A DNA stretch of 32,000 nt from an archaeon (GTDB lineage: Archaea > Asgardarchaeota > Thorarchaeia > Thorarchaeales > Thorarchaeaceae): NCBI GenBank assembly GCA_024275415.1, contig JAJRZD010000033.1:50551-82550 (forward strand), given 5' to 3'. Each line of letters starts with the position of its first letter. Within the stretch, counting starts at the first letter, position 1. Below the pieces are notes generated by a model. It made no database searches. It saw nothing but the letters and a program-made list of their open reading frames with translations, and was not told the origin of the DNA. Positions 5,947 through 27,172 of this stretch are shown one piece after another. The translations under genes were made by a program, and so were the position numbers.

Positions 5947-6239
5947 ATCTTGCCCCTGTCCGTGAGGCAAGACTACCCACGTATATTGTTTACTGTCAAG
6001 GATATTAACTTTCGAGTAGTTGGCAGGACGAAAAGACCATGCTTGTCGTTGGTTTATTGTATGAATGGAATCATTCATTGCATTTTGCGGCTCACCACAT
6101 GCACTTGCTGTTACATGTCAATCTCGCAGTCGAGAAAAGAGGTTTCGTAGTCCAAAGAGATACGCAATCTACGAACTATAATCCTCTCCTTGATGACATG
6201 CTTATAAGCGTCGAACGTGTAAGAAGGATAAGAGCGAAC

Positions 6240-8087: not shown

Positions 8088-8391
8088 GCCGACCTCATAC
8101 TCCTGTGGGAGTGCTCGAGTCTATAAAGCCCTATAAATTACTTCAAGTGTTCATCTAAGGGATGTCCACGTTTGGGTAACGTGTAGCGCAGCTGTTTGCA
8201 ACCTTTTTTCCCGTGTCATATCCATGGCGATTAGCCCGCACCCCATGAATCGTTACATACCTTTTCATAGCAAACCAACTGTATCACCGAGCCGATTTGG
8301 ATAAATATTTTTGCGAGTTTTAGTTTCTGTCCAATAGATCACTTCTCGCAACACTCCAAGAAGTCCAGACGGTGGATGTTGTGAAGCAGCA

Positions 8392-8574
8392 CCTCTCCAT
8401 CAACCGACTCCGCATCCGTGTGGTATCTCTCAGATCCTTAATGGTTCCCGTAGGGACGTAGGAAGATCTCACAAATCCAGCTCTGAGCAGGACGACCAAC
8501 CAGACACAGTCCTTCAGGTCGGTTTTGTGCGATGACATGTCCTTGACCTGTCGGGCATAGTTTAATAGTTTCAT
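8392..8574 (-). mobile_element. IS110-family transposase remnant (fragment of the DEDD/RuvC-like domain)
   Basis: ARQVKDMSSHKTDLKDCVWLVVLLRAGFVRSSYVPTGTIKDLRDTTRMR matches the IS110 signature KTD..DA.WLA.LL..G.L..S.VP.....LR.L.R.R. The rest of the gene is absent or decayed. Confidence 0.8.
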
Positions 8575-8838
8575 TCCAGTCATGCTACGTGACCTCCTAG
8601 TTTTATCTAGGACTGTTGCCGGACTAACATTACAATTTTCAATACGTGTCCGCAACACAAATGGATAACTTCATCTGTTCGTTTCAGGTCATTTCTCACA
8701 CCGTCGTCCAGATGGCAGAGTCTACTCCAATCAGTCTAGTCTTGAAAGAGCATAGTATGGGAACGCACTCATGTTTTTTCACACGGGGCCCAGATGAAGG
8801 ATACTCTTATATTATCGAAAAGATTAACTAAACGAATT

Positions 8839-10473
8839 ATGTGCTTTGTAAGTGAGGACTACATTTGCTCAATATTTACCCAGCCATCCAGATCCAATTT
8901 CTTTGTAGATCTTAAGGGGAAGACAGATGTTCTGATACCTACCTTCCTTACCTTGAAAAAGATCGGAGTAAACAAGAATAGAAGTGTGGACTATAATGAG
9001 GATGCAGCACGTGAAGCCGTTTTCCTGCTTAATTGTCCATATTTAAGCACAGAACCCCATCCTGAGAATAAATACCTTATCAATCCATTCAGCCGCAGCT
9101 TTATCAAGACGACCGGAGCGAAAAAATATTGGAGATCTGAATCACTAGATAGATATGTAAAACTTGGCAGTCACGGTTTATGCAATAACTATGTTGGTGG
9201 AGGTACTATATGGGATCGGATTTTAGCGACATCTGAAAAGTCTCCAATTAGGTTTCGGGTTAATTACATCGACGAAATTAAGAAAGCGTGTGGGATATCT
9301 TATAATAATCGAATAGACATAACGAAATTAGCCGGTTGGTGCTTTAGAGAAGTCTCATTTGATAAAGGTCTTTCTAAAAATGAGTTAACTCAGTCTGCAA
9401 TAGAGCTGTTTCTTGGTACATTTAATATCACTAACGAAGAAATGAAAGCACTCTTCGAAATAACCGGAGATCTGATTCGATTCTCATCTAATCTACTAAA
9501 CATGTCGAATGTGAGAGCCAACTGCTTCAACTTTGACCCTCCTGGATCACTCATTAGCAATAAACTCATAGACATCGATGCGATGTCTATGGATAGGAGG
9601 CATTACTTTATGAGTTCAAATCCTAAACTTGAAAAAATCATAGAGATATTGAGAGAGAAAAAGCAACTAGTACTCTACGGACCTCCAGGTGTAGGCAAGA
9701 CTTGGATCGCTAAGCAAATTGCCAAATGCAAAGATTGGAAGAAGACGGAAATTGTGCAGTTTCATCCAAGTTATGGTTTTGAGCAGTTCATAGGAGGATA
9801 TTTTCCAGTAAGTGAGTCTGATCCAGAGGGAAAAGATGTCAGCATTGCCTATCGAGAAGGTATTCTTCTGCGGTTTATAGAACTGGCTGAGAAGGATCCA
9901 GCCTTGTTGATCATCGATGAGATAAATCGGGGCAACCTCTCAAAGATCCTTGGGGAGGCCATAATGGCTCTTGATCGTGGCTATGAGGTCAACATTGGCT
10001 CACATCCTAAAGAAAAAAAGCTAATTCTCCCAGATAATCTACATATCATTGGCACAATGAATTCGACAGATAGGAGTATTGCTTTCGTGGATTTTGCTCT
10101 TAGGAGAAGATTTGCTTTTGTAAGACTCGATCCAGATGCTGAAGTGATTCGTGAACACTATAAGAGAAACACAAGAATCGAGTCTGACGGCAAGAGCTTC
10201 GATCTAATCGATCTATTCGTTAAAATCAATGAGAGGATTGCCTGCCACGCTGCATTGGGAAGAGAATTTCAAATAGGCCATTCCTATTACATGCTTCAGA
10301 TGAGTGACTTGAGTTTGTTCTATGATTCGTTCTTATATTTCATCTTACCATTAGTGGAGGAATACTCGTACGGCAATCTATCAGTATTGACTGATATTCT
10401 TGGAGAACGTCTTCCTTATACTAAGAGTGAAGATGACTTTCTGGATGCCGTTATAGAGTATTTGGAATCATGA
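8839..10473 (+). CDS. mcrB: McrB-like AAA+ GTPase (restriction system motor subunit) with an unrecognised N-terminal domain
   Basis: Walker A LYGPPGVGKT, QFHPSYGFEQFIGG, Walker B LIIDEINRGN, the McrB signature GTMNSTDRS and DFALRRRF, plus QIGHSY. Start may be 8794 or 8839; a TTATAT box at 8807 favours 8839. Confidence 0.92.
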   Translation: MCFVSEDYICSIFTQPSRSNFFVDLKGKTDVLIPTFLTLKKIGVNKNRSVDYNEDAAREAVFLLNCPYLSTEPHPENKYLINPFSRSFIKTTGAKKYWRSESLDRYVKLGSHGLCNNYVGGGTIWDRILATSEKSPIRFRVNYIDEIKKACGISYNNRIDITKLAGWCFREVSFDKGLSKNELTQSAIELFLGTFNITNEEMKALFEITGDLIRFSSNLLNMSNVRANCFNFDPPGSLISNKLIDIDAMSMDRRHYFMSSNPKLEKIIEILREKKQLVLYGPPGVGKTWIAKQIAKCKDWKKTEIVQFHPSYGFEQFIGGYFPVSESDPEGKDVSIAYREGILLRFIELAEKDPALLIIDEINRGNLSKILGEAIMALDRGYEVNIGSHPKEKKLILPDNLHIIGTMNSTDRSIAFVDFALRRRFAFVRLDPDAEVIREHYKRNTRIESDGKSFDLIDLFVKINERIACHAALGREFQIGHSYYMLQMSDLSLFYDSFLYFILPLVEEYSYGNLSVLTDILGERLPYTKSEDDFLDAVIEYLES

Positions 10474-10486
10474 TTACCAAATCCAG

Positions 10487-11734
10487 TTGGTGGTGGTATT
10501 GTCGTTTCCAGAAATTTATTATGATAATCAGATAATCGAGCTTACCGAAACTGAAGTGACCGAGTTATTGAGTGTCACAGAGAAACTTGATATCGATATC
10601 ACTATTCAAAAGGTTGATGACCGCTATCTGTTCGTTCCTAGCGGTCTAGTTGGTACAGTGAGATTATCTACTCGAAGTGTGATTATTGCTCCACGCCATT
10701 CTGTATTTGACTTCGATGTTATACTTCGTATGTGGCTTTTTGTGAACTTTGGAAACCTTGACATGCCATTATCCCACTTAGACACAAAACCCGATAATCT
10801 TGCCAGCTATGTAATCTCACTATTCCTCAATGAGCTAAACCGTATTAGCTCACTACGTGCGAGGTATATCCAATACATAGAATCTCTACCGTATCTACGT
10901 GGGAACCTAAAGCTCCCAGAACATCTTATCCAGAGCATTGGTCAACCCTTTTCGCTTCTCTGTGTATATGATGACTTAACCCTCGATAATCCCATAAATC
11001 AGATGCTTGCATCTGCCATCCGAAAGGTGAAGCGATCTGGCTTTGGCTCGGACAGCTTCTTGCTGAATCGACTGTTGAATCGTTTCAAAATCATATCAAA
11101 TCTTTCTGGCTCTGACAATGATTCACGATTAGATTCGATAATAGCCCACGCACGCAGTTCGTCCATAGACAAGCATTACGAATTGGTTCTGACTCTCGCG
11201 AAAGTGATTCTCCTCGACCTAGGTAGCACTGTTGGTGTAGGAGGTAGTGTGATACAAGCATTTCTTGTGAACTATGATTCCCTTTTTCAAGATTTTGTCA
11301 CAAAAGTTCTAATGAATTTCACAAACATAAAACTAACACCTACACCAGAAATTATTTATGCAGATTGGCAAGATGATTTGGGGCATGACCATATTAAGAA
11401 GATTCAACCAGACATCACTCATGCCTTCAATCCAGTAACTCAAACCTGTTTAACTGTAATTGATGTGAAGAATAAGGTTCCAGTGGCGAGAAGTAATTAC
11501 TTCTCACCTGCTGATGTGTATGAGGTTAGTTTCTACTCTCTGATTCTGAAAGCTGAGAGAGTCATTCTAGTTTACCCCTTGAACTCCTTTCGAGAGAATT
11601 ATATTATGAGTATTGTGAGTGGGGCGAAGATCCTTCATCTTACTGCTGTATTTCTAAATCTTTCACATAATAACTCGGTAGATTTTTATCAAGAGATTAG
11701 AAGATTCTGTGACAGTGTTTCGCGCCTCTTATGA
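10487..11734 (+). CDS. mcrC: McrC-like PD-(D/E)XK nuclease subunit
   Basis: Directly follows mcrB. It has G.V....+...I.PR, Y....YLRG.L, YDDLTLDNPINQML, NYDSLFQDFV and the catalytic IQPDI...VIDVKNK, followed by ADVYEV.FY. Confidence 0.85.
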   Translation: MVVVLSFPEIYYDNQIIELTETEVTELLSVTEKLDIDITIQKVDDRYLFVPSGLVGTVRLSTRSVIIAPRHSVFDFDVILRMWLFVNFGNLDMPLSHLDTKPDNLASYVISLFLNELNRISSLRARYIQYIESLPYLRGNLKLPEHLIQSIGQPFSLLCVYDDLTLDNPINQMLASAIRKVKRSGFGSDSFLLNRLLNRFKIISNLSGSDNDSRLDSIIAHARSSSIDKHYELVLTLAKVILLDLGSTVGVGGSVIQAFLVNYDSLFQDFVTKVLMNFTNIKLTPTPEIIYADWQDDLGHDHIKKIQPDITHAFNPVTQTCLTVIDVKNKVPVARSNYFSPADVYEVSFYSLILKAERVILVYPLNSFRENYIMSIVSGAKILHLTAVFLNLSHNNSVDFYQEIRRFCDSVSRLL

Positions 11735-11948: not shown

Positions 11949-13361
11949 TCACTTTTCGAAGAATAGAATACTTTCTCGTAATATGAAGGATCTTCTTACG
12001 CCAGACCTTCTCACGCGGTCTATCTCTAATCTTTTCAACCTGTATCCAATAACATCAGCAATCATCATCGTAAGAAGATCAGTAGGAATGTAGACATCTA
12101 GGATGAGTGAATCTCCTACAACCCATGCCACCTTTGCACCACTTTTCATGGAATCATACATCCTTCGCAGAACGTAATAGATATCTTCAAAGTACTTCCT
12201 TAGAAGGATAGGATAGTCTCTTCTTCTAATACCTAGACGTTCTCTCATTCTTGGTTCAACAGCAGCTGTCACATAGTCAAGCCAATCAATAGACAAGAGC
12301 GGGGGGTTCTGAGCATATTCCTTTATCATCTTTCGTGATACATTGTCACAGAGAACCATCCGATCCCTAAGCTCTTGCATGTCCTTGGTTGATTTAGCGT
12401 CACCCATCCATCCGATCTCTAGCTTGTAGTTTCCGACATAATCGAACGAGTTTAAATACGGTGGCGAGGTAATCACTGCATCAACTTTGATATCCTCTGG
12501 AAGTGAGAACACCTTGGAATCCTCACAGAAATTATTAGAAGACCCAGGTTTCTTGACGCTTTTCCTAACAATACGTAGATCTCTTACTATCATCTCGATT
12601 TTCTTTTTGAAGATCTCTACGGGTAGTTCAGGATAGATATTCTTAGTCTGTTTCTTATCGTACCCTATCGATGGTGATCTTCTCAAATTGCTTGAGGGCA
12701 GAAGGATTGTTATAAAAGCTAGATCAAAATACGATTTAATTGACGTATCTTCTATCAGTTCGATTTGTTCTTTTATCTTTAGAATTCGCTTCAATATTTC
12801 TGGTTTGAACTGCCGATCCACTTTCATGAAGGACGGTGCCCTAGTTGACGGTTCCCCTGAGAAGTCCATCTTGTTGTACTCGTCTAGAATCAGCTTTGGG
12901 TCTGTCTTCCAGCATGTTTTCGTTTCTAAAATCCTATATATTGTAGGATTAATTTCGATTCCAATAGAATCTATACTCTTCATCATTGCACAAACATTGA
13001 CGGTTCCCGAACCAGCAAAAGGGTCAAGAATAACGTGTCCCTCGCTTAGTTCAAACTGGTTTATAATCTCATAGACAAAATCGTCAGAGAAGCCCTCTAA
13101 ATAGCTAGTCCATCGATGAATGGGTTTTTTTTTGTTGTTTACAAAATTCAAGCCTCGGTTTAGTAAGCTATGCTCGATGACAACCCCAGGATATCGTTTT
13201 TTGAACTCAAAGAGATATGTATCAGGTGTCTTGAAATGATAACCCATTGATTTCCATAAGTCAAAGTTCTTTCTGTAGAATGATCTTACTTCTGTTATCA
13301 TATTAGCCTCTCTTGGGTTTTCGATATCAAGATAGTCCTCGAGAGTATTCAATGGTTTCAC
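11949..13361 (-). CDS. Amino-DNA methyltransferase, alpha-class motif order, probably N4-cytosine
   Basis: NKKKPIHRWTSYLEGFS, motif I ILDPFAGSGT preceding motif IV VITSPPY (SPPY is typical of m4C enzymes), and C-terminal WVVGDS. Confidence 0.9.
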   Translation of the reverse strand: MKPLNTLEDYLDIENPREANMITEVRSFYRKNFDLWKSMGYHFKTPDTYLFEFKKRYPGVVIEHSLLNRGLNFVNNKKKPIHRWTSYLEGFSDDFVYEIINQFELSEGHVILDPFAGSGTVNVCAMMKSIDSIGIEINPTIYRILETKTCWKTDPKLILDEYNKMDFSGEPSTRAPSFMKVDRQFKPEILKRILKIKEQIELIEDTSIKSYFDLAFITILLPSSNLRRSPSIGYDKKQTKNIYPELPVEIFKKKIEMIVRDLRIVRKSVKKPGSSNNFCEDSKVFSLPEDIKVDAVITSPPYLNSFDYVGNYKLEIGWMGDAKSTKDMQELRDRMVLCDNVSRKMIKEYAQNPPLLSIDWLDYVTAAVEPRMRERLGIRRRDYPILLRKYFEDIYYVLRRMYDSMKSGAKVAWVVGDSLILDVYIPTDLLTMMIADVIGYRLKRLEIDRVRRSGVRRSFILRESILFFEK

Positions 13362-13510: not shown

Positions 13511-13911
13511 ATGAGTGCCACCCGAAAAATGATAGAAGTGATACTACCTCGTCATAGACGCTTATCTCGCAAGTTTGCAAAATGGTTGGCTAACAAAGGC
13601 TGTGATGGAATTAAGGTTGAGAGGGATCAGATTGATGTGAGCTTTCGAAATAAAGGTGTTACGTACATGGTAGAAATCAAGATCATCTACAAAGTTTCCA
13701 CGAAACATGCAATAAGAGAAGCAATTGGGCAAGTCCTTGAATACAATTATTATGAGAAACGAAAACCTGCTGACAATTGGATTATTTTGATAGATTCTGA
13801 ACCAACAGATGACAATATTCGATATCTGAAAAGGTCAAGAAAATGCACAGTTTGCCACTTAACTTATGTTGGCCAAAGGGTAGTGATTTCATTTTCATGC
13901 AGAAATTCTGA
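13511..13911 (+). pseudogene. PD-(D/E)XK endonuclease-like gene with a one-base frameshift at about 13829-13832
   Basis: PRHRRLSRKFAKWL, ERDQIDVSF...YMVEIK and IREAIGQVLEY are nuclease motifs. Shifting -1 at the AAAA run gives a protein-like tail KVKKMHSLPLNLCWPKGSDFIFMQKF* (stop 13909-13911), whereas the track's tail runs into the next gene. Confidence 0.65.
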
Positions 13912-14039
13912 CAGGGAGCGTATACTAAGGTGGTTAATGATCATTGAATTTATTCTCCCATCTCCTAAATCTTGCATGATTTTTTCATACAGTATTGGTT
14001 TTCTTTCATTTAGATGCATGACAATATTATACATAACAC

Positions 14040-15056
14040 ATGAAACTCTTAACAACTAATCAATGGGACTTGCCCGGATTCGGAGCAGGTACGAAACATC
14101 GTAGAATCGAAGGATATCTTCATGAGATGCGTATCTTCGTCAATAGTGTCTGTAACCACAGATGCAGGTTCCCAGAGGGGCAGACTTGGTGCCACTCACG
14201 AGATGGGATGGTAGGTTTGGGAAGAGACATGGATTCGGAGAGTTGGCTATACCTTCTGGAAGGACTGGATCGATGGAACATGCATTCATTGAAGATTGCA
14301 GGAATGGAACCAACGTTACACCCAGATCTACCAAGTCTGATATCTGCAACTCAGTCTTTCAATATGAAAGATATTAGTATGACCACAAACGGGTTCCGGT
14401 TGGTACCCATACTACCTAATCTTGTCGAAGCTGGATTGAACCGACTAACTGTATCACTACATACTTTGAATCCATCTATCTTCAAGACCATAACTGGCGG
14501 AAGCGTCTTTCCAGTCCGTGAAGCTCTAGATTTGTGCGCAGATTTTGGAATACCGACAAAGTTGAATGTAGTTCTTCTTCGTGGAGTTAATGATGACATT
14601 CGAAACCTTCTAGAATATGCATCAAGCCGCCAGTTTGAGATCAAATTATATACTCTTCTCTGGCAACCTCATTTCGAATCAGACTACAACCGATACTTCG
14701 TTTCATGGGATGAGGTGATTCAACCTCTATCTAATGATTGGAGAGGAATTGAACTGGTCGAATTCGTGAATTCTCAGCGGTATCGCTACACACTTGAAAC
14801 TGAGAATGGCATAAAGGTCACAACAAGTTGGTTTCAACACAAGACCAACAGCATATATAACATCTGCAGGAACTGCCCACTGAACTCTAGGTGTGAGGAG
14901 GGATTCATGGGTTACGGGTTTGAAACAGACTCAAATTTCTTAGTGAATCCGTGCTATCTTCGACCAGAACTACGGTTTGACCTGAAACCTTTCTTGGAAC
15001 GGAAGTATTGTAGTGTAGAGAAACGACTTGATCGGATTGCAAATGATGGAGGGTGA
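14040..15056 (+). CDS. MoaA-related radical SAM enzyme with an atypical CX3CX8C motif and a four-Cys C-terminal cluster motif
   Basis: MRIFVNSVCNHRCRFPEGQTWCH, KIAGMEP, ISMTTNG, AGLNRLTVSLHTL.P..F..ITG, KLNVVLLRGVND and C-terminal CRNCPLNSRCEEG...NPC all align with the MoaA scaffold. No other moa/moe genes are nearby. Confidence 0.85.
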   Translation: MKLLTTNQWDLPGFGAGTKHRRIEGYLHEMRIFVNSVCNHRCRFPEGQTWCHSRDGMVGLGRDMDSESWLYLLEGLDRWNMHSLKIAGMEPTLHPDLPSLISATQSFNMKDISMTTNGFRLVPILPNLVEAGLNRLTVSLHTLNPSIFKTITGGSVFPVREALDLCADFGIPTKLNVVLLRGVNDDIRNLLEYASSRQFEIKLYTLLWQPHFESDYNRYFVSWDEVIQPLSNDWRGIELVEFVNSQRYRYTLETENGIKVTTSWFQHKTNSIYNICRNCPLNSRCEEGFMGYGFETDSNFLVNPCYLRPELRFDLKPFLERKYCSVEKRLDRIANDGG

Positions 15057-15059
15057 AAG

Positions 15060-18000
15060 GTGAAACGCAAGAAAAGGAAGGAGTTCGACAAAGAAGATAT
15101 TCTCCAACTGCTCCGAGACCTCAATATTGATAGAGTAATAGAAGATGCTCATCTGCTTTTGGATTTGAATCGTGATGGGAAGTGGTCCATTCGACTTCTT
15201 TTGCTCTCCTACCTTCTGAAAGAGAATGAACTACAGACAATACGTGAGTTTGTGGATTTCGGATTCTCAAAGATTGCAGATGACTCGTTGTTTCAAAGGT
15301 TCAATTTCAAGAAAATTAGAAGTACTCTAGCCATGCCCGAGAAATGGTTTACAGATGAAGGTGGTAGTGAATACATTCCTGGTTCTGGCAATGCAAGAAG
15401 TATCCTGAGCAAAAGAACAGATCTGTTTACAAAGATTGGCTCAAGGTACGTACTAAATGAGAAAAATGGTAGCAGGGATCTTGCACTCGTTCTCTTCATA
15501 TTCCTGTTGAAAGCGCGCGGAATCGATTTAGAAAAGATTCCTGATGCAGATGAAGTGGAGAGTGGGTCAGTTTCAGAAGGAACATATCGGCAACTATTCT
15601 TGATTGATTCCACCGGCAAGCCAACGTCGCTTTCTCACAAAGTTCAAGACATTGTAGAAGACTGTCCAGTACTAATCCAAGCGGAGGAATTTGATAAAGA
15701 TACGAAGAACATTCTTCCACACATTCAGAGAACAATACTCGACTTGCTTCAGCGACATCACAGTGCATTCACAAACCCCCCGCATAAGAGGAAATTAGCA
15801 ATAATCTGTAAACCGATCTACAGCTTACCTGCTAGAAGCAAGAATGAGGAGTTCACTATCAACAGCTTGCTGACTCCTTCAACAAGCGAGAAGGAGCATT
15901 CCATGAATGGTGTGGATGGAGAAAGCATTGAAGATTCAGATACTAATCCGGTTCTGCTTACAGGTAGTGCGGGAAGTGGAAAGTCATTCTGGATGATCAA
16001 ACTAGCTTTGGACTTGTGGAATCATTCATTTAAGTCAGGCAGCCCTAACAGGAGTGACAGGGTTATCCCACTCTTCATAGGACTTGGATCTGTTTTTCTT
16101 GACAAGACTAAACACGGTGAATCTCTGGTATATGGCGAAGAAAAAGCTACACTATGGCACATAGATGAACCACCTGACGAGATTCCTCGTAGATCTTTGA
16201 TAGACCGGTTTCTAGGAGCAATGCTCAAGAAATCACCTCAATATATCCGGAAAATTCTCGACCGAGTAGATTGGCACGAGGTCAAGTTCGTATTTCTCTT
16301 AGATGGGTGGGATGAACTTGGTCGTCGAGAGAGGAAAGAGATGATACGGCTCATCAAGTCAAGTCCGATAAACCAACTACCTTGCATCATTAGTTCCAGA
16401 AACAAGGACAGCGATTTTGATAGTATAGAAATTGAGCATATCCGATTAGAGAAACCCACCATTGACAATTGTAAGGACTATCTGCGTTCTCGTGGAATGG
16501 AAGAAGAAGTTCTCGACAAGGTCAAAGAATGGTTCCCCGATCCCTCTCCTCTTGACTTGGAGATTTTAGGTCGAGTACCAAAGATGGAGGAGATCTCCAG
16601 TGGTCGCGTTCCCGTTTATAGAACGTGGATTGAACTGCAAATCTTGTCCTCTATCCGGAGCGATATTCTACAAGATTTACGGTCACGTTCTCAGATTGAC
16701 ACATTTATAGAAGGCGAGTTTTTCCGTGACAAATCGTTGAAGGACTGGATTCGAAGCCGAAACAATTCTCATTCGGTCTGGAGATGCCTGCCATATATTG
16801 CATATCTGCAGAAAGATGGACTAAATACATCTCTTAGTTATGATCAAGTCGTTCAAGATAATCCTCTATTGAAGGAGTTCCTAGAGAAGCGTTATGGCTC
16901 TGGAGATTCACCTCATCCTGAAATTTCAAGGAATAACTTGGTTCCGTATTTGTCCGCTGAGTATGTTTTCAGATCATATCTATCGGGAAAATACCCTCCT
17001 ATTAGAGGGGATTTACAAACCTTCAGATTCCTAGTTGAGATATTGTCATATGATTTAGAGCGGCGACATGATAGAGAATTAATTCCGAGAAGTGCCGAGT
17101 TGACGCCACTACAAACTGCTGCAATGATATGTCTTCAGGGAGAATCTGAAGCCTATACTAATGGAGCAAGAATTCGCCCATTTATCGCTGAGGGAAAGTC
17201 AGGGTCAACTCCTTTCTATACTGCGTTGTTTGATGGTTTTGTTAAGTATTGGAGCCAAACATCAACTTGCTGTGTACGAAGGAATATTCTTGATGCATTC
17301 ACGAAGTTAATTCGCACGTTTATAGTTGAAGAGAAAGAAGGAAACCCCGCACAGTTCATTGTCCCGTTATTAGAGATCGAACAGGCATTTGATTCTAATA
17401 CCTTCTCCAAGTTGATAACAGAAGAACCTGATACGTCTGTAGACCTAGAAATTTGTGATTCGTCAGGATACACACTCTATTATCTCGATTATGAGAAAGT
17501 CCAGGATTGGCTCTTACAGCTTTCCGTTAAGAAGCCTTGGTTGACTCCTTGGACTGTGAGAGTAGTAAAGCAAGAGAACCGATTGAAAATTCGGGATATA
17601 ATTGATGAAGCCCCTGATGAGTGGATGATTTACGAAGTTCTGAACTACGTTACGTCCGGATTCACATCAATTGACTCTGAATGGTTTGAGAGCATCCATA
17701 GAAATGCACTACGCCTTGAATCCGACTTGTTATGGAATTCCATTGCAATTGGCCTTCAAATGTCGCGCGGAGAGATAGACGACTACAGATTCTCGAAAAT
17801 ACTTGAAGTTCTGGGCTCTCCATGCGTTGAGGAAAGATGGAAGTTTGGATTGATAGTCAATTTGGGGAAAGTCAGACTGCCTGAACGATACACAAGAGAG
17901 GTATGGCGATCTACTGAGCAAGGGAAAATCGGTTTAAAATATGGCATAGCACTTTGCCTATCCCAGGAGCTACCAGATATAGCCATAGATGATATCCTTG

Positions 18001-19772
18001 ATGCAATTCGGGATAGCGAAGGATCCGGGTGGCTGAGGCTGCTATTACCGGGGATTCTCCAAGAGGAATATGATGAAGAAGAAATCAATAGTCGTTTTGT
18101 TCAGCTCAGTTATACCATCGTGCAGGCAATCACACGAGTTAGGGTTGTTCCATGGGATGAAGCCCGTTTAAATAGTTTAATTGATATGTGGTGGGATTCA
18201 AACCTCAAGACATTGGAAGATGCACTATCTCTAATCAAGACAATATCGAAGAAACGGAGAGAGAACCAGCTAGCTATTCTGGATTGGAGAGAAACTGAGG
18301 CTCTCAAACGACTAGTAGTGTGGTTAGGGAGTTCGCGGAAATCCACCAAGAAGAAGTTCTTCAGGAAACTCATAGAATCTGAGATTGATATGACGGATTT
18401 CTCAGTAAGAGAACATCTATATCCCATCTATCAGGAAATCGATAACAGAACAGATCTTGATGAACTCCTTGTTGCGCGTTATCCGCTTTACCATTGCAGT
18501 ATATCGATACTCCCCTTGTCAAGAGAGTCGTGGTTAACTCATATCGACAAAGTGGATCGTGAAGAACTCCTAGAAAGTAACTGGTTGATGGAGATATACC
18601 TCGAAGCCGGAAACGTGGCAACCATCGATGGAGCTATTAGCCTTCTCAATGAAATACAGAATCAAAGTGATTATCTAATAGAAACCTTCGACTCATTAGT
18701 AAAATGGGTTCTTCAAAGGCCCACTGATGAGATTGCACCGTTTATACTTCAACTCCTTAAGGAGAATCCTGCAACTACAAGGATGGGTTATTGGCGAAGA
18801 GTAAAGGAGAGTGGCCTGATTAAAGCTCTTGTTCCTGTTTCGAAAAACAGTCCTGAAGTGTATACTCGAATTCTGGAGATTGCAAAGGAAATACCAGGTC
18901 TTCAGATCGATAAACGTTCTGAGCTTCAATTCCTTTTCGAGGCACTAGCACCTGATGATCAAATGAGAGTTGTTCGGGCTCACTTTGAGAGATTTGTGGG
19001 GAAGGAGTCCTTCTTTTTCGGAAAGACCCTAGAAGAGATAATCCTGATTCATGGTAATAAGAACGATGTAGATTCACTCGTTCGCTCATTAAATAAAGAA
19101 CCAAGAAACCTTGGGAACATTTGGTCGAAGAATCCGGAACGGGCAACGGAAATCTCAAAGAGGCTATCCAATCCCTTCTCGTGTCTTCTATATGAAATTG
19201 ATATGATTGGAGGTTGGGCTGAGTACAAGAGGGAATTAGAGAAGAATCCAAAGAAGGTTGAGAAAGATCTACTGCTATTCCTCAAGAATGATTGGATCCA
19301 TAAAGGCTATGAATTCCTTGTCGCAGGAGGAGTCTTGAGAGAGGTTGCATTGAAGCATTGGAAGCGGATATTTCAAAGTGACAAGGCCTCGAGAAACGAG
19401 ATTGAGTTATACCTTGGTGCTCTCTTTGAACCCGATGATGATGAGATTGTTGAGTATGTAGCAAGCGAAGTCGATGAAATCCACAGAAACCTCAAAGAAA
19501 GGGAAAAGGAAATAGCAAAGGCATATCGTACCCCTTGGTATTCTTGGAATATCCCTGTTCTTGATAAAATTCAAAATAGACACGGTTATACTGGTCTTAA
19601 ACGATTGCTTATGAAAGTAAAAGATCAATATTCAATTGAAGGTGTAATGACATATCTGGTGAAATCGGCGAAAAAAGAAGGAATTCCAAAATCTGAGATT
19701 GTATCACTGGACGAATACCTCAAGCTAAGCAGGGCGATCAGATGGCATTTGATGAAGGAATACGAAGACTAA
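15060..19772 (+). CDS. Large STAND NTPase of the NACHT class (NLR/Avs-like architecture)
   Basis: Walker A VLLTGSAGSGKS (about 15963), Walker B FVFLLDGWDEL (about 16300), sensor CIISSR and a GxP-equivalent PSPLDLEIL. An ~290-aa N-terminal region and an ~1000-aa helical C-terminal region flank the NTPase. The GTG start lies 3 nt after the radical SAM stop, with GGAGGGTGA upstream. Confidence 0.88.
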   Translation: MKRKKRKEFDKEDILQLLRDLNIDRVIEDAHLLLDLNRDGKWSIRLLLLSYLLKENELQTIREFVDFGFSKIADDSLFQRFNFKKIRSTLAMPEKWFTDEGGSEYIPGSGNARSILSKRTDLFTKIGSRYVLNEKNGSRDLALVLFIFLLKARGIDLEKIPDADEVESGSVSEGTYRQLFLIDSTGKPTSLSHKVQDIVEDCPVLIQAEEFDKDTKNILPHIQRTILDLLQRHHSAFTNPPHKRKLAIICKPIYSLPARSKNEEFTINSLLTPSTSEKEHSMNGVDGESIEDSDTNPVLLTGSAGSGKSFWMIKLALDLWNHSFKSGSPNRSDRVIPLFIGLGSVFLDKTKHGESLVYGEEKATLWHIDEPPDEIPRRSLIDRFLGAMLKKSPQYIRKILDRVDWHEVKFVFLLDGWDELGRRERKEMIRLIKSSPINQLPCIISSRNKDSDFDSIEIEHIRLEKPTIDNCKDYLRSRGMEEEVLDKVKEWFPDPSPLDLEILGRVPKMEEISSGRVPVYRTWIELQILSSIRSDILQDLRSRSQIDTFIEGEFFRDKSLKDWIRSRNNSHSVWRCLPYIAYLQKDGLNTSLSYDQVVQDNPLLKEFLEKRYGSGDSPHPEISRNNLVPYLSAEYVFRSYLSGKYPPIRGDLQTFRFLVEILSYDLERRHDRELIPRSAELTPLQTAAMICLQGESEAYTNGARIRPFIAEGKSGSTPFYTALFDGFVKYWSQTSTCCVRRNILDAFTKLIRTFIVEEKEGNPAQFIVPLLEIEQAFDSNTFSKLITEEPDTSVDLEICDSSGYTLYYLDYEKVQDWLLQLSVKKPWLTPWTVRVVKQENRLKIRDIIDEAPDEWMIYEVLNYVTSGFTSIDSEWFESIHRNALRLESDLLWNSIAIGLQMSRGEIDDYRFSKILEVLGSPCVEERWKFGLIVNLGKVRLPERYTREVWRSTEQGKIGLKYGIALCLSQELPDIAIDDILDAIRDSEGSGWLRLLLPGILQEEYDEEEINSRFVQLSYTIVQAITRVRVVPWDEARLNSLIDMWWDSNLKTLEDALSLIKTISKKRRENQLAILDWRETEALKRLVVWLGSSRKSTKKKFFRKLIESEIDMTDFSVREHLYPIYQEIDNRTDLDELLVARYPLYHCSISILPLSRESWLTHIDKVDREELLESNWLMEIYLEAGNVATIDGAISLLNEIQNQSDYLIETFDSLVKWVLQRPTDEIAPFILQLLKENPATTRMGYWRRVKESGLIKALVPVSKNSPEVYTRILEIAKEIPGLQIDKRSELQFLFEALAPDDQMRVVRAHFERFVGKESFFFGKTLEEIILIHGNKNDVDSLVRSLNKEPRNLGNIWSKNPERATEISKRLSNPFSCLLYEIDMIGGWAEYKRELEKNPKKVEKDLLLFLKNDWIHKGYEFLVAGGVLREVALKHWKRIFQSDKASRNEIELYLGALFEPDDDEIVEYVASEVDEIHRNLKEREKEIAKAYRTPWYSWNIPVLDKIQNRHGYTGLKRLLMKVKDQYSIEGVMTYLVKSAKKEGIPKSEIVSLDEYLKLSRAIRWHLMKEYED

Positions 19773-20110: not shown

Positions 20111-21591
20111 TTGATTACCATGGCTAGTATCTGGATGCTCTCAAAGGATGCAATGAGAGGAATGGACATAGTTGGTGCAATCTCTGAATTTCTTGACGAG
20201 TACCAAACAAAAGGACGTCCTACTTCCGAGTCCAGTGACCGCGTGCTATATGTTATAGAAAGACTCATCTTAGGTGCCAGAAGTTTCTTAGATTCTAATG
20301 TCAGAATTGACTCATTCTCGATGATGATTGCAGAGGCAGTACATACCGAGATGTCGAAGACACCAAATGAACTCATCTCAATCCTCGAAAGATGTGCAGA
20401 ACATATCCGTTCGCAGAGCGAGCACCTGAACGATTGCTTGGACATCCTACGCATCATCTCTAAGAATGTGATGCGAGTGACATCGAGGAGAGTGGATACA
20501 AGATCACTTGTCCTACATTAGTTGAAAAGCTGATTCATGAAACACGATCCAAGCTGAACAGGTTCAAGAATCAGACCGTTTCGATTCGTGGTATGCCCTA
20601 TTTTGAACCATTCTACAATTTCTCTATTTCCATGGTATCTAAGATATCAAGCTTTATCGATAGAGTGGAAAGAAGTTCGAATCCTTCAGATAGATTGACC
20701 CACATTTGGCTTTCTCAAGCATCACTCGACTGGCTTCTTATCCAGCATGGCTTCTTCAAGATGTCCTATCATGACTCCACAACAAACAAGTGGTGTGCAC
20801 TTCAAGGACTGGTCAAAACAGGTTCTGAGCTGTTTGAAATTGGCGCGCCAGTCCTTGGTACATTCTATAACACATATGGCTCCACTGGTACGTTCATTCT
20901 GAATAGGAGGATAGGCCAGCTATCTGGCGATGATTACTTTATGGTTATAACGGACGAACTGGATCCACCAATCTTTTGGCCGCTTGTGATTCATGAATTG
21001 GCTCATTGTTGGCTGAGTTCTCAGACAATTGTCGAGGAAATCAGCTCAAAAGTCCATTATAACAATGAGTCAAGTATTATAGAACGACGCGTCGAAGAAG
21101 CACTATGTGATGCAATTGCAACATCATTCATGGGACCTTCTTATGTTTACTCCTACATCAACCGTTTGTGGCACAGCTTTATGATGATGGATAGTTTCGA
21201 ATACCCCAAGAACTCTTTTCGTCTTGAGGTCATGATTAGAACTCTAGAACAAGCAAATTATGACGAAGTGGAGGATCTTAAAATCATAATTGAGGAAACC
21301 AGCACTGTAGACTGGGAGGATGAAGCAATTGTGGATTCTCTAGCACCAATTGAAGAGTTTGCAAAGCAATTGCCCTTCATTACTAAACCCAACTCTCTTG
21401 TAACAGATATAGAGAGTGTCAACGAGTTTGTGAATGCTCCACCAGCAAACCTACAGAAGCTCTTTCATGTGGGGTGGATGTTATTGAATACGTCAGACAT
21501 GAAAACATATTCTGATGAATTCAATAGCATTAACTCCACAATTCAGGAATCATTAGAACGGAACTATGCCACGTTCAATACCCAAACTTAG
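20111..21591 (+). pseudogene. HExxH (zincin-like) protein of about 490 aa split by a one-base frameshift near 20462; track ORFs 20111..20521 and 20593..21591 are one gene
   Basis: The frame of 20593 is open back to 20464 (ECDASDIEESGYKITCPTLVEKLIHETRSKLNRFKNQTVSIRGMPYF), and adding one A at 20462-3 joins both ORFs. Motifs WPLVIHELAHCWL and VEEALCDAIATSFMGPSY, plus YP.NSFRL. Confidence 0.7.
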
Positions 21592-23853
21592 CTCTCTGGC
21601 AATTCTATGAGCCATTCTAAGTGGTGCTGGGGTCGAATAACTTTTCCCCGGAGATCCCCAGTTGAGATACGATAATTTGAATACATCTTCAAACGCTTTG
21701 AATTGATTAACTGAACCAGTAATATGAATAAAACCAATAGTGATGGGCCTGGGAGTGCCATGTTCATATTCATCTGCACCAGCTGCACATAGAACCATAT
21801 TTGACTCATCTAGGATATAGTAGTTTCCAGAGTCTGGTCTCCAGATATCGGACTGCCTTCCACGATATATCCTGAAGGGAGTAGTTTCCCTAATAGTAAT
21901 AATAGCTGAATGAGCAATACCTGATTTCTTCACAACAAACTCAAAATCACTTCTTTCTTGATCATAGACACTACCATCCCGAAGATAGAGAAGTGATTTT
22001 ATATCAGGGACAAGTGCCTTAGCATCTTCTATGCACCTCGACAGACTATCTCTATCGATACTCTCCCCGACAGCAAGTTTTGTTTGACCAATTTGGTATT
22101 TCCCTATCTTGTCATATACTATCATCATTACCCAGTTCTCTGATTTAGCTCGCCCAACGTCTATTGCAATATAGCAATCATATGTAAGTTGAGAATCTAG
22201 AACCCACGGAATACAGTTCGCGCGGGTAAGCAATGATGCAGCATATCCAGCCAACGGAAAGGTTTTTTTCTGTTTCACAATTTTGTTAATAGTTCGTGTT
22301 GTTATACACTTTGCAGGCACCTTAAGGCGTCCGCAAATATTCGTAATATCATCATGAAGATTCGTGTTACCATCATCAATGATGGCCACAACGATTGCAT
22401 TTCTAGTATCGAAAGTGCGGGACTTCTGAAGTTGTTTTTCCATGTTTCTCATATTTGGTTCCAAGAGAGTTGGTTTCTGAGGAAGTCTGACTTTGAAGTT
22501 CCTGTCTGTGTATTTTACCAGTGAATCATAGAATGACAATGCTAAATCCCTGTTCCCAGAGGAGTACAGGTATGCCCTTTTGATAGGTGTGACTTGATAC
22601 AGCCCTCTCTTTATCTCATCTCTAATCCTCGAAGGTGAAACCGCATTTTGACTAGCCGCGACAAGTTTAGGCAATGGAATCCGATTGGATGAGGGGAATT
22701 CCAGCGGTGATTCAAATTCGATTTGGTACGGACCAAGTTTAAGAGCAGAAAACTCATACTCATCGAACAGATCCATTGTTTTCTCCCAGCGGGTTCGTGC
22801 TGTGTGCTCTGGGTCACGGCTTCCCGGATGAGCATTATCCGAATAATAGGTATGTTCAGCAGTTATCCTAGATGGGACATCCTGAAATCGTACATTCTTG
22901 TGAAGAAATTGGGGTGCAAATGCAAATTCCCCTCTTCGCAACCCCGGCTGATTCATATCCAACCAGTTTCTTGGTTTCCGGTCGCCATACTTTGTAATCA
23001 GGTAATCAGCAATAGATTGTTTCGCATCAGCAGGAATCTTACTAATCGGCCTTTCGTCTATCCCATCTATCCCCACATCCATTGGAGCTAGACTGTAGAA
23101 GAAATGAACACCCCTGAATGACTTTCCCAGTCGTTTCATTTCCCACTTTCTCAGGTTGATTTCCCGTCTGAGTGATTCTAATCCCGAGGCCTTGATATGT
23201 TCAAGATACGGGCGTGAGTCAATATATCTTGTTGCCACATCTAGAGAGAGTATAATTCTTCCGTCATTCAGCACATTATATCGATACCTAGGCCCCCTGA
23301 ACAGTGTAAGAGGCACTTGATAGTCATTTGTAAGATCGATTCCTACTACCGGGAAATACGTGTGTGTTCCTCCATTCCAGAGGACTCTTTTAGTGCTAGA
23401 TTCCTTGGTCTTATTGAGTAGTGCTGTTAGAGATTTGTGACCCGCTATTCCGTGCTCTAGATCAAGCTTTCCCACGTATATAGCTCTTGCAGAACCAACG
23501 GATACTTGCTCTTGGATAGGGTTGCGATTCAATAAACCAACAGCAAGGTTCTTTCCTCGTGCTGAATAGAATACAAATGGGGTTTTGTTATCCCATTGCA
23601 ATTTGCTTATGGTCTTCCCAACAAGACCGTATTTGTTCGCTCCAGAACCTACACCTTCGAGTTCGAAAGCATCGAGTCGTTGTGACACTTCATTGAATGA
23701 CAAGCTGCCTGTGAACACGTTTGAAACAATCGACCAGTTATCGCCAACCACGAATACTCCCTCCTGTTCTACTACGTCCTGCAAATTTTTTATATGTATG
23801 TATTGGATTGAGGATGTCAGCTTAAGGTGGGATGCAAGAAGAACAGCATTCAC
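21553..23853 (-). CDS. ago: Full-length (long) prokaryotic Argonaute with an intact DEDH catalytic tetrad
   Basis: 766 aa. L1 (IILSLDVATRY), PAZ (SIADYLITKYG...NQPGL...FAPQFL), MID (IVVAII...VPAKCI...LLTRANCIPWVL) and PIWI (YIAIDVG, GESID, YLRDG, GTPRPI, KLSYLNW, PAPLRMAHRIA). Confidence 0.95.
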   Translation of the reverse strand: MNAVLLASHLKLTSSIQYIHIKNLQDVVEQEGVFVVGDNWSIVSNVFTGSLSFNEVSQRLDAFELEGVGSGANKYGLVGKTISKLQWDNKTPFVFYSARGKNLAVGLLNRNPIQEQVSVGSARAIYVGKLDLEHGIAGHKSLTALLNKTKESSTKRVLWNGGTHTYFPVVGIDLTNDYQVPLTLFRGPRYRYNVLNDGRIILSLDVATRYIDSRPYLEHIKASGLESLRREINLRKWEMKRLGKSFRGVHFFYSLAPMDVGIDGIDERPISKIPADAKQSIADYLITKYGDRKPRNWLDMNQPGLRRGEFAFAPQFLHKNVRFQDVPSRITAEHTYYSDNAHPGSRDPEHTARTRWEKTMDLFDEYEFSALKLGPYQIEFESPLEFPSSNRIPLPKLVAASQNAVSPSRIRDEIKRGLYQVTPIKRAYLYSSGNRDLALSFYDSLVKYTDRNFKVRLPQKPTLLEPNMRNMEKQLQKSRTFDTRNAIVVAIIDDGNTNLHDDITNICGRLKVPAKCITTRTINKIVKQKKTFPLAGYAASLLTRANCIPWVLDSQLTYDCYIAIDVGRAKSENWVMMIVYDKIGKYQIGQTKLAVGESIDRDSLSRCIEDAKALVPDIKSLLYLRDGSVYDQERSDFEFVVKKSGIAHSAIITIRETTPFRIYRGRQSDIWRPDSGNYYILDESNMVLCAAGADEYEHGTPRPITIGFIHITGSVNQFKAFEDVFKLSYLNWGSPGKSYSTPAPLRMAHRIARELSLGIERGIVPF

Positions 23854-24366: not shown

Positions 24367-24470
24367 ATAATCATCTAGGTTGCCAGCATTATTCTGAGAA
24401 CCTGTCTGACACGTTTCATCTCTCTATCGTCTGCCTCTGCAACTTGCTCTACTGCTCGGGACTGGTCGAG
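24367..24470. repeat. Direct repeat copy B: 3' end of the intact mazF-like gene (partner at 19909-20012)
   Basis: See copy A. This copy carries the TAG stop where copy A has CAG. Confidence 0.95.
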
Positions 24471-24728
24471 CGCTCTTATCTGGTGACAGAGGATGAACGA
24501 GTCGTTCTTCAGTTTCCCTTTCTTTTTTACAGGTATCTCAGTCCAGAAATTCTTCTGTGATGAGGTGAGTGGCACTATAACAACGATTCCTGATGGCCCC
24601 TTTACACCGGCCCGTGTGGATGGATTTGCAACCACTAGACAGGGTCTAACTTTGTTGGTTTCACGACCCCTTGTTGGATCAAGGTCAAAGTAGGCAATAT
24701 CGCCTTGCTGGAGATGAGATGAACTCAT
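24375..24728 (-). CDS. mazF: PemK/MazF-family mRNA interferase toxin
   Basis: QGDIAYFDLDPTRGRETNKVRPCLVV, IVVIVPLTS and SFILCHQIRALD; the catalytic RP and PLTS motifs are retained. Confidence 0.93.
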   Translation of the reverse strand: MSSSHLQQGDIAYFDLDPTRGRETNKVRPCLVVANPSTRAGVKGPSGIVVIVPLTSSQKNFWTEIPVKKKGKLKNDSFILCHQIRALDQSRAVEQVAEADDREMKRVRQVLRIMLAT

Positions 24729-26040: not shown

Positions 26041-26116
26041 GAGCCCTGTGATCCCTCATTAGGAAACATTACCAATAACACATTTATACTCTGATAGTGT
26101 TTGAATGTTAGGGGTT

Positions 26117-27172
26117 ATGAGTTTGGCAGAAGAGGGACTTGCTGACAAATGGATTGACAAAATCAGTCAACTGGTTCTTGATGCGTGTGACCAATTTGAT
26201 GAACTTCAGCGTAATGTGAAGAATGTTCGCCTACAGTTCAAAATGCCGGCGAAACACCACAGTTCATTCTCATTTGCATTTGTCGACGGTGGCTCTGGTT
26301 ATGTTGATCTTGCTGGCGGATCCATCTATTTTATCCGTGCAGCTGGGGCTTTCTTCAAAAATCCCGATAAGCCAATATGGGAGTCTGATGTCGGTGCAGG
26401 GTTCACAATTCTATCTCGAAATGTTGATCGATTTGTCGGAATTGAAAGGGACATCTTGGAGATACAGACAGCAATCGAACTGTTACAGTACAAGCCAGAC
26501 ATGATAGTAATGGATAATTCTCTTGCATCATACGCAGGTATGGGCGTTCCATACTCCATTTTGCATCGCTTTCAAGACCCCCGACCTGATGGTAGTCCCG
26601 AGTTCCAATACTTCAACCGATTCGTCACATTAATGAAACGATTCGATGCGCTCATCACAGAGTGTTTGCTAAATGACATCCTTCTGGTAGGTATAACGAA
26701 GGATCCAAGGTCTAGGGGTTACGCAAAGAATCTGCAATTGGGGAATAGTGTTATGGACATCACTGCTGTTTCTCTGATTGCAGATGGACAGGTCGGATTC
26801 ACGCCAGAGTTTGACTCGCAATACATTAGAATTGATAGAATTGAGGAATATCTCAAAAAGCATAAGATCCTCACTGATAATAGAGGGGATTTCATGACTT
26901 GTTTTTGCATTCTCTCTCCAAAAGCTAATCCCTTCAAGATTGACTATCTCAAATCACAAAAAAATCAGGCTCGGGAAATCCGGGAAATGATAGTTTCCCT
27001 ACATGATGGAAGTGGATACCTTCTGCCATCTCATATTGTGCACGATCATGCCACAATATCCTCAGAACTAGCTGAGGGGCTTACACAACTTGTCTTGAAG
27101 AGGACAGCTGAGCGGAACATGAGAACAGCTGAAACAATCCTTAGAGCGCAAAGAAGGAGTAGATTCGGATGA
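26117..27172 (+). CDS. nurA: NurA 5'-3' nuclease
   Basis: FAFVDGGSG (first catalytic Asp), IVMDNSL (second Asp), LVGITKD and GYLLPSHIVHDHA. First gene of the herA-mre11-rad50 operon. Start may be 26105 or 26117; TTTATA at 26083 favours 26117. Confidence 0.88.
   Translation: MSLAEEGLADKWIDKISQLVLDACDQFDELQRNVKNVRLQFKMPAKHHSSFSFAFVDGGSGYVDLAGGSIYFIRAAGAFFKNPDKPIWESDVGAGFTILSRNVDRFVGIERDILEIQTAIELLQYKPDMIVMDNSLASYAGMGVPYSILHRFQDPRPDGSPEFQYFNRFVTLMKRFDALITECLLNDILLVGITKDPRSRGYAKNLQLGNSVMDITAVSLIADGQVGFTPEFDSQYIRIDRIEEYLKKHKILTDNRGDFMTCFCILSPKANPFKIDYLKSQKNQAREIREMIVSLHDGSGYLLPSHIVHDHATISSELAEGLTQLVLKRTAERNMRTAETILRAQRRSRFG

Follow-up and report, generated by a model that had tools for sequence, protein, structure and literature searches.

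A STAND-class nucleoside triphosphatase (NTPase) and a radical S-adenosylmethionine (SAM) enzyme share a validated antiviral operon, KpAvs2-Avap1-Avap2 of Klebsiella pneumoniae, in which the radical SAM protein Avap1 is needed for defence against phage T2 in a role that is unexplained (Bechon et al. 2024, Nat Commun, PMC11564622). We analyzed a comparable arrangement in a stretch of 32,000 nucleotides from the genome of an Asgard archaeon (the whole stretch is called the window below). Here, a gene for a MoaA-derived radical SAM enzyme of 338 amino acids (14040..15056, plus strand, ATG start; defined by its open reading frame (ORF), family scans and Pfam Radical_SAM, 6.8e-21) is followed directly by a gene for a giant NLR-like protein of 1570 amino acids (15060..19772, plus strand, GTG start; defined by its ORF and homologues). 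A first-pass annotation, made from the letters of the window alone, recognised no named system that joins a MoaA-like enzyme to a NACHT protein; for STAND and radical SAM proteins in general, the Klebsiella operon is a precedent. The pairing as such is already known; the two-gene form, the NTPase without a found effector domain, the new cluster spacing of the MoaA-derived enzyme and the Asgard host set the pair apart. It goes unmentioned in two surveys that cover the defence systems of Asgards and of archaea (PMC11291487, PMC12988326).

Like the KpAvs2 operon, the pair places a STAND gene and a radical SAM gene in one operon, with a 3-nt gap or an overlap between them in five loci. Unlike KpAvs2, which has its own Mrr nuclease effector, the giant has no enzymatic domain that we could find and probably begins with a winged helix; it is NACHT-like, no PADLOC model matched it, and its host is an Asgard archaeon. 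The pair also differs in having neither an equivalent of Avap2 (DUF6375) nor any other third conserved gene. Finally, the enzyme is clearly MoaA-derived and keeps substrate-side residues of MoaA, whereas Avap1 is reported to lack a nucleoside triphosphate (NTP) pocket, a comparison made by description only.

The giant shares with the bacterial NACHT and NLR-related antiviral proteins and with Avs a three-part build, in which a NACHT-type NTPase sits in the middle and a long C-terminus follows, as well as a patchy distribution and a defence-island setting. Those proteins are usually fused to a nuclease, TIR, SIR2 or protease domain, whereas the N-terminus of the giant looks like a winged helix and the enzyme is a separate gene. 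The pVip and asVip viperins belong, like the enzyme, to the MoaA-related group of radical SAM proteins, and their modification of nucleotides for immunity serves as our working analogy for an effector role; unlike the enzyme, they act alone or with a kinase, without a STAND partner. Large ATP-binding STAND regulators (AfsR/SARP-LAL, MalT) combine a DNA-binding domain, a STAND NTPase and a long sensor region. The giant would resemble them in its predicted DNA-binding domain, alongside its STAND NTPase, its long C-terminus and the conserved operator in the promoter that it would control. It differs from them in that it has no SARP, BTAD or LuxR-type match, its NTPase is NACHT-like and not of the NB-ARC or MalT type, its host is archaeal and it is co-translated with its presumed target enzyme.

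A conserved two-gene unit of Asgard archaea

The gene coordinates and the ribosome-binding site that the first-pass annotation had placed at the stop codon of the enzyme gene were recovered exactly. The enzyme gene ends with TGA at 15054-15056, leaving a 3-nt gap before the GTG of the giant gene at 15060. The bases GGAGGGTGA at 15048-15056 contain a GGAGG Shine-Dalgarno-like motif (15048..15052, plus strand, 8-12 nt before the GTG), which is supplied by the terminal Gly-Gly codons of the enzyme. At four other loci the junction is again a 3-nt gap or an overlap of 1-4 nt, and the last Gly-Gly codons of the enzyme again provide the motif ahead of the start (GGAGG in four of the five loci, GGGGG in the fifth). 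The recurrence of the short or overlapping junction with its motif in five loci indicates that translational coupling is a conserved feature. Both genes are under purifying selection, with ratios of nonsynonymous to synonymous substitution (dN/dS) of 0.09-0.15 for the enzyme and 0.14-0.21 for the giant where dS is unsaturated.

The expectation that the two genes stay adjacent in other genomes was borne out. All contigs of close homologues that show the gene next door were retrieved. In each of the seven independent ones (the window, L009, L010, L011/L012, L013, L014 and the P0010 contig) the giant gene comes directly after the enzyme gene, and the flanking genes differ from locus to locus. The enzyme family occurs in three of 400 genomes of the same phylum (G000, G313, G336), each time with the giant adjoining, and a fourth genome of the phylum (74% complete) has the giant only, as a fragment at a contig end. 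Within the host's family the giant is present in 4 of 85 genomes, and none of the six other genomes of the host's genus carries the module. The metagenome-assembled genomes (MAGs) in which it occurs are labelled by NCBI as Lokiarchaeota/Promethearchaeota and Thorarchaeota. The pair is thus a conserved two-gene unit of Asgard archaea.

Members of the family are very few. Among 5.8 billion proteins, a word-indexed search yielded no more than eight close homologues of the enzyme (41-100% identity); E-values then jump by sixty orders of magnitude to the ordinary MoaA proteins. For the giant, an exhaustive HMMER search of 1.84 billion representatives, using a profile of its first 1200 residues, returned only 16 relatives. 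Scans of genomes and metagenomes with the enzyme alignment added just two more relatives, both truncated (L040, L041). The known loci number about ten, and the general reach of the system is limited accordingly. Neither gene was found among the viral contigs searched, and a search for longer homologues yielded no fused enzyme-NTPase protein, which is weak evidence.

Comparison of the window with L009, L011 and L013 showed that identity along the module is a mosaic. The enzyme is closest to that of L011 (72-87% per 100-residue block), and residues 159-557 of the giant, covering the NTPase core, are closest to L009 (57-73%, versus 44-66% for L011), suggesting recombination between module variants. 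The module is most likely an accessory element that moves horizontally among Asgard archaea.

Family placement and motifs of the enzyme

The first-pass annotation had described the enzyme as MoaA-derived and distinct from the housekeeping protein, and the family models agree. The archaeal and bacterial MoaA models of NCBIfam (TIGR02668 and TIGR02666) are its best matches, yet its scores lie far under the cut-offs (122.9 bits versus 325.25, and 113.4 versus 284.05). The best SPASM-type scores are 25-40 bits, compared with 123 for MoaA, the viperin model NF038283 gives 37.2 bits against a cut-off of 180, and the PADLOC pVip matches are weak (1.5e-11). The closest solved structure by sequence is S. 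aureus MoaA (1TV8/2FB3; E 5e-17). Unlike MoaA, the enzyme has no molybdenum cofactor (Moco) gene context and is a second copy, the paralogue of a true MoaA encoded on another contig of the same genome (C122, 345.2 bits); that genome contains no viperin.

A tree was built from seven family members, 37 MoaA sequences and seven Asgard viperins. All seven members fall together in it (100% support), as one clade on a very long stem of 2.66 changes per site. The clade is separated from the viperins with 99% support in the Shimodaira-Hasegawa-like approximate likelihood-ratio test (SH-aLRT), and its position as sister to the genome's own MoaA has an SH-aLRT of only 83%, with long-branch attraction flagged. 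The enzyme falls on the MoaA side of the tree, outside the viperins and in a clade of its own. We conclude that it is MoaA-derived and neither a housekeeping MoaA nor a viperin.

Three arginines are essential in MoaA, Arg17, Arg266 and Arg268 in S. aureus numbering (PMC9026282, PMC12625886). Its auxiliary cluster has three Cys ligands, and the fourth site binds guanine N1 (PMC9026282). Arg266 matters most for this N1 coordination and Arg268 docks the carboxylate of the C-terminal Gly-Gly tail, by which GTP is sensed and SAM cleavage is set off; this triggering requires the O6 of the base (PMC12625886).

In an alignment with 106 MoaA sequences, 67 columns reach a conservation of 85% or more within MoaA, and the family keeps 32 of them. 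Like MoaA, the enzyme has the TIM-barrel core, both cluster Cys triads, the catalytic Arg17 (R31 in the enzyme), K163, TTNG and the C-terminal Gly-Gly, which stands at the MoaA positions with both residues in five of the seven members and with the first in all seven. Also retained are the first two Cys of the SAM cluster and a third, Gly-Glu-Pro, Ser139 and Lys174. Unlike MoaA, which has CX3CX2C, the enzyme carries a SAM-cluster motif CX3CX8C with a six-residue insert (Cys38/Cys42/Cys51; 14151..14192, plus strand). These three Cys are invariant in 7/7 members, and the insert is family-wide and present also in two more fragments. Further departures are GMEP in place of GGEP and KLYx in place of RFIE.

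The auxiliary-cluster region reads CX2CX5CX19C (14865..14954, plus strand). Cys276, Cys279 and Cys305 are invariant and align with the auxiliary triad of MoaA; the extra Cys285 is specific to the family, likewise invariant, and part of Cys285-Glu-Glu-Gly in a 12-residue insert. The RxR of MoaA is missing: Arg266 is replaced by Leu or Tyr and Arg268 by Ser, Asn or Leu, both being 100% conserved in the 106 MoaA sequences. The enzyme is a natural experiment on MoaA, combining a new SAM-cluster spacing and the loss of the arginines by which GTP binding is coupled to radical initiation with a retained Gly-Gly sensor tail.

Because Arg266 and Arg268 are absent, the enzyme should not be a GTP 3',8-cyclase. 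It is likely to be active, given the invariance of all cluster Cys and a dN/dS of about 0.1. A MoaA-like active site is indicated by what is retained, namely the barrel, Arg31 and the Gly-Gly tail, whereas Glu-Glu at the site of Arg-x-Arg would suit another base or another class of substrate. With the arginines that hold guanine O6 and dock the tail lost, and the acidic Cys-Glu-Glu-Gly in place, nucleotide chemistry other than GTP cyclization would be the most likely activity. Gene callers for P0003 and other members began the enzyme at Met57, past the cysteine motif; the long form is the right one, since protein-level conservation extends over the first 56 residues.

The giant protein and the shared promoter

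The NACHT-type NTPase core of the giant (15963..16400, plus strand) has a Walker A motif GSAGSGKS (302-309), a Walker B motif LLDGWDEL (413-420) and a sensor motif IISSR (443-447). In 13 relatives, some as distant as 18% identity, four of these residues never vary (G305, G307, K308 and D415) and three hardly do (G416, E419 and R447). Measured against the Pfam NACHT cut-off (PF05729; 26.7 bits), the whole protein falls just short at 24.3 bits, and residues 270-720 taken alone reach 28.2 bits. NLRC4 came first, weakly (E 0.01), in a PDB profile search of the NTPase, and the language-model neighbours in the ESM Atlas were NACHT clusters (0.96). On these motifs and matches we accept the giant as a divergent NACHT-type STAND NTPase, as it had been annotated.

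The N-terminal region had been thought to hold an unrecognised effector. Instead, residues ~26-155 within the region 1-295 form a probable winged-helix domain (15135..15524, plus strand). An AlphaFold2 model of residues 1-295, built from 12 diverse sequences, had a mean predicted local distance difference test score (pLDDT) of 72.6, reaching 80-93 over residues 10-160. In an exhaustive structural comparison of residues 26-155 with VIA-align, all 50 of the 50 best chains were winged-helix proteins (HxlR, MarR, PadR and the Orc1/Cdc6 winged helix), the best being 3df8 (middling Z of 7.3, root mean square deviation 2.6 Å, 83 residues aligned). Foldseek found no significant match of the N-terminal model in the PDB or the AlphaFold DB clusters, and, when searched as profiles against PDB sequences, neither the whole giant nor its N-terminus gave a useful match. 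The modelled fold suggests that the N-terminus is probably a DNA-binding winged helix, matched by the conserved operator in the promoter described below.

An AlphaFold2 model of residues 1-740 (6 sequences) had a pLDDT of 41, too poor to read helical or winged-helix domains after the NTPase core. The C-terminal region of ~850 residues (17217..19769, plus strand) belongs to no recognised family, with no Pfam, PDB or Atlas assignment, and is presumed to be the sensor by analogy with the STAND architecture. Scans with Pfam and PADLOC gave no nuclease, TIR, SIR2 or protease signal anywhere in the giant.

A Gly/Ser/Pro-rich loop at residues 609-625 of the giant (window ~16885-16935), EKRYGSGDSPHPEISRN, is nearly invariant in the enzyme-linked clade. 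Its segment SGDSPHPEI (614-622) gives way to unrelated sequence in distant relatives that lack the enzyme, and the loop could be a docking or modification site. Predicted complexes of the enzyme with giant residues 1-295 and 285-649 scored 0.02 against a mark of 0.32, a result that weighs neither way on binding.

The distant relatives (P0138/P0139, of ~2090 amino acids, and a protein of genome G352) share the winged helix and the NTPase with the giant at 22-29% identity. P0138 sits after leucine-rich repeat (LRR) proteins, and the P0132 contig begins at the gene itself. The gene upstream of the G352 relative was considered as a radical SAM candidate and rejected, being another protein. At locus L034 (6723-7538, 8001-14267, 18962-20231) a 2088-residue relative with winged helix and NTPase comes after LRR-repeat proteins, and a separate radical SAM/SPASM gene (332 amino acids), itself preceded by an 88-residue ORF, lies downstream at a distance of about 5 kb.

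The 165 bases that precede the enzyme gene were aligned across five loci. There is no similarity until ~75 bases before the ATG and strong conservation from there on, although synonymous sites between the loci are near saturation. The conserved block contains an operator-like palindrome shared by 5/5 loci, which reads TGCATGATTTTTTCATACA in the window (13973..13991, plus strand). L009 and L013 have its pattern TGCATGAA-N3-TTCATGCA in perfect form, and the window has a degenerate one. The pattern matches once in the window, against 0.01 matches expected, and once elsewhere in the 3.5-Mb genome, there with a different spacer. Closer to the gene is a TATA-like box, TTTAGATG (14009..14016, plus strand; -31 to -24 from the ATG), which would be part of a promoter giving a leaderless or near-leaderless transcript. 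In the same alignment TTAGATGCAT is nearly invariant, and a third half-site, TGCATGA, follows the TATA-like box. An RNA element was rejected on account of the lack of an Rfam match and of compensatory changes or covariation. As the winged helix of the giant is the only candidate DNA-binding domain of the module, autoregulation is the simplest reading: the predicted winged helix would probably bind the palindrome of the module's own promoter. The palindrome and the TATA-like box shared by all five promoters are new here.

Proposed function and genomic setting

We infer that the pair is a self-contained, probably autoregulated conflict module, most likely antiviral, a reading that we consider about equally apt to prove right or wrong. 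In this mechanism the long C-terminal region of the giant would recognise a trigger, and the NACHT-type NTPase would act as the switch and oligomerise on activation. The MoaA-derived enzyme would deliver the output by radical chemistry on a nucleotide, different from the conversion of GTP to 3',8-cH2GTP, so that a toxic or signalling nucleotide is made or a nucleotide is depleted. The winged helix would tie the system to its own promoter by binding the palindrome there. Since no enzymatic domain was found in the giant, the enzyme would be the module's only catalyst and hence its effector. The first-pass annotation had offered two roles for the enzyme, maker of a modified nucleotide or effector, and the second gains weight from the same finding.

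In a bolder form, which we regard as doubtful, Asgard archaea would have evolved a second MoaA-derived radical SAM immune effector, independently of viperin, that is controlled by an NLR-like sensor with a DNA-binding domain of its own through the promoter, by direct activation or by both, and that, rewired with CX3CX8C, a four-Cys auxiliary site and Glu-Glu for Arg-x-Arg, turns a non-guanine NTP into a new antiviral or signalling nucleotide. If the antiviral reading is true, the module would be the first NLR-like system whose only catalytic part is a radical SAM enzyme, and the product of the enzyme could be a new nucleotide analogue. The unexplained role of the radical SAM partners of STAND proteins, such as Avap1, would become directly testable in a minimal two-gene setting. 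Asgard archaea are, moreover, the closest prokaryotic relatives of eukaryotes, in which NLRs and viperin are central to innate immunity.

Several observations weigh against the antiviral module as proposed. The PADLOC comparison suggested for the giant was run, and 0 of the defence families in PADLOC-DB 2.0 matched it. About 850 C-terminal residues are without a modelled fold or family assignment. The Z of 7.3 behind the winged helix is middling, though the answer was uniform and spans whole target domains. The family is tiny, so that the association with islands is based on four to five loci, and L010 shows no defence gene among its visible neighbours, which encode a MatE transporter and a histidine phosphatase. 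No radical SAM gene adjoins the distant relatives of the giant at those loci whose upstream flank can be seen (L034/L035; G352), and the enzyme family was not found in the searched genomes of distant relatives, G352 and G128. The lineage of the giant therefore does not need the enzyme, which was recruited by one clade of this NTPase lineage. On the side of the enzyme, the Gly-Gly codons double as the Shine-Dalgarno motif and their conservation may not reflect catalysis. The case for a nucleotide substrate comes from the retained MoaA residues only, and an auxiliary cluster with all its ligands in place would be just as compatible with chemistry on a protein or a small molecule.

A different assignment of roles would keep the module as a conflict system: the enzyme would modify or mature the giant or another protein, and the effector would be the C-terminal 850 residues or oligomer-driven DNA binding. 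The invariant Cys285 could complete the ligation of the auxiliary cluster, as in twitch/SPASM proteins, and so remove the iron site for GTP N1 (PMC9026282), while acidic Glu-Glu replaces the guanine-binding RxR. A strict 1:1 translational coupling suits a stoichiometric partner, and the invariant loop SGDSPHPEI of enzyme-linked giants, missing from unlinked relatives, may offer a target. The authors of the Avap1 study found neither viperin-type nucleotides nor an NTP pocket for that protein (PMC11564622). We nevertheless consider a protein-directed enzyme unlikely: the family groups with the nucleotide enzyme MoaA (123 bits) and not with the peptide-modifying SPASM proteins (25-40 bits), it retains R31, K174, TTNG and the Gly-Gly tail of MoaA substrate gating, and no small precursor gene is conserved beside the pair in the loci examined.

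Alternatively, the pair may have no part in immunity, the giant being a STAND-class transcription factor of the AfsR/MalT kind in a metabolite-induced operon and the enzyme making an accessory cofactor or small molecule. The order of N-terminal winged helix, STAND NTPase and long C-terminus is that of a large ATP-binding regulator, the module's own promoter carries a conserved palindromic operator, and the L010 neighbours are not defence genes. However, it would be unusual for a 1570-residue regulator to be coupled translationally to a single enzyme, no other biosynthetic or transport gene is conserved with the pair, and Pfam places the giant in no regulator family, SARP and LuxR included. The patchy distribution, the mosaic module and its repeated nearness to restriction, toxin-antitoxin and Argonaute genes also count against this reading, and we rate the non-immune operon as improbable. 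That an ordinary Moco MoaA or a viperin lies beside a large gene by chance is barely credible: its best family models are MoaA and PADLOC pVip matches weakly (1.5e-11), but the scores fall under both MoaA cut-offs (122.9/113.4 bits versus 325/284) and that for viperin (37 versus 180), the true MoaA is elsewhere in the genome, the essential R266 and R268 are absent (PMC12625886), the family forms a separate clade split from viperins with 99% SH-aLRT, and the adjacency holds in seven loci with different flanks.

In the window, the pair lies in a low-GC stretch (36-45% GC, ~8.3-25.6 kb) between housekeeping genes. The DNA to one side of this island is ~50% GC and carries a GH38 fragment, an aminotransferase and an IS110 fragment. 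The left edge is marked by a DUF3782/PDDEXK_10 protein (6039-7124, plus strand) and a weak IS110-type transposase fragment (8320-8658, minus strand; 23.7 bits). Next come a McrB-like AAA_5 GTPase (559 amino acids) and McrC (415 amino acids; together 8794-11734, plus strand), which converge on a divergent type II-like DNA methyltransferase (11949-13361, minus strand; PADLOC MTase_II, 5e-57). Downstream of the pair, a 332-residue ORF of no known family (20593-21591, plus strand) overlaps convergently with a long prokaryotic Argonaute (pAgo; 21553-23853, minus strand; PADLOC pAgo, 3.5e-43), and a MazF/PemK toxin gene (24375-24728, minus strand) lies just past it. Housekeeping DNA resumes to the right with a complete operon for NurA, HerA, an Mre11-like phosphoesterase and Rad50 (26105-32000, plus strand). 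No molybdopterin gene was found among the scanned window ORFs of at least 100 amino acids, and the first-pass description of a defence island without such genes holds, given McrB, McrC, the methyltransferase, the long pAgo and MazF.

Between the methyltransferase and the pair is a 182-residue ORF (13511-14059, plus strand) whose first ~100 residues resemble a small PD-(D/E)XK nuclease (D...EIK motif; weak PDDEXK_9, E 0.006). Its last third is of low complexity and crosses the conserved promoter of the radical SAM gene. The ORF is probably a decayed restriction endonuclease, the former partner of the methyltransferase at 11949-13361. We rejected it as a third gene of the module because it is absent upstream in the other loci and its 3' third runs over the conserved promoter.

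The module lies in islands at other loci too, with a HinfI restriction-modification pair and a PDC-M57A-like gene at L009, an integrase at L012, and a ParE toxin, a PIN protein and, 6.4 kb downstream, a Schlafen-fused short pAgo at L013. This last protein (L013 21112-23850, in the Thorarchaeota-labelled MAG GCA_021498125.1) carries a Schlafen/AlbA_2 domain, matches PADLOC pAgo_I at 4.7e-114 and is unrelated to the Argonaute of the window.

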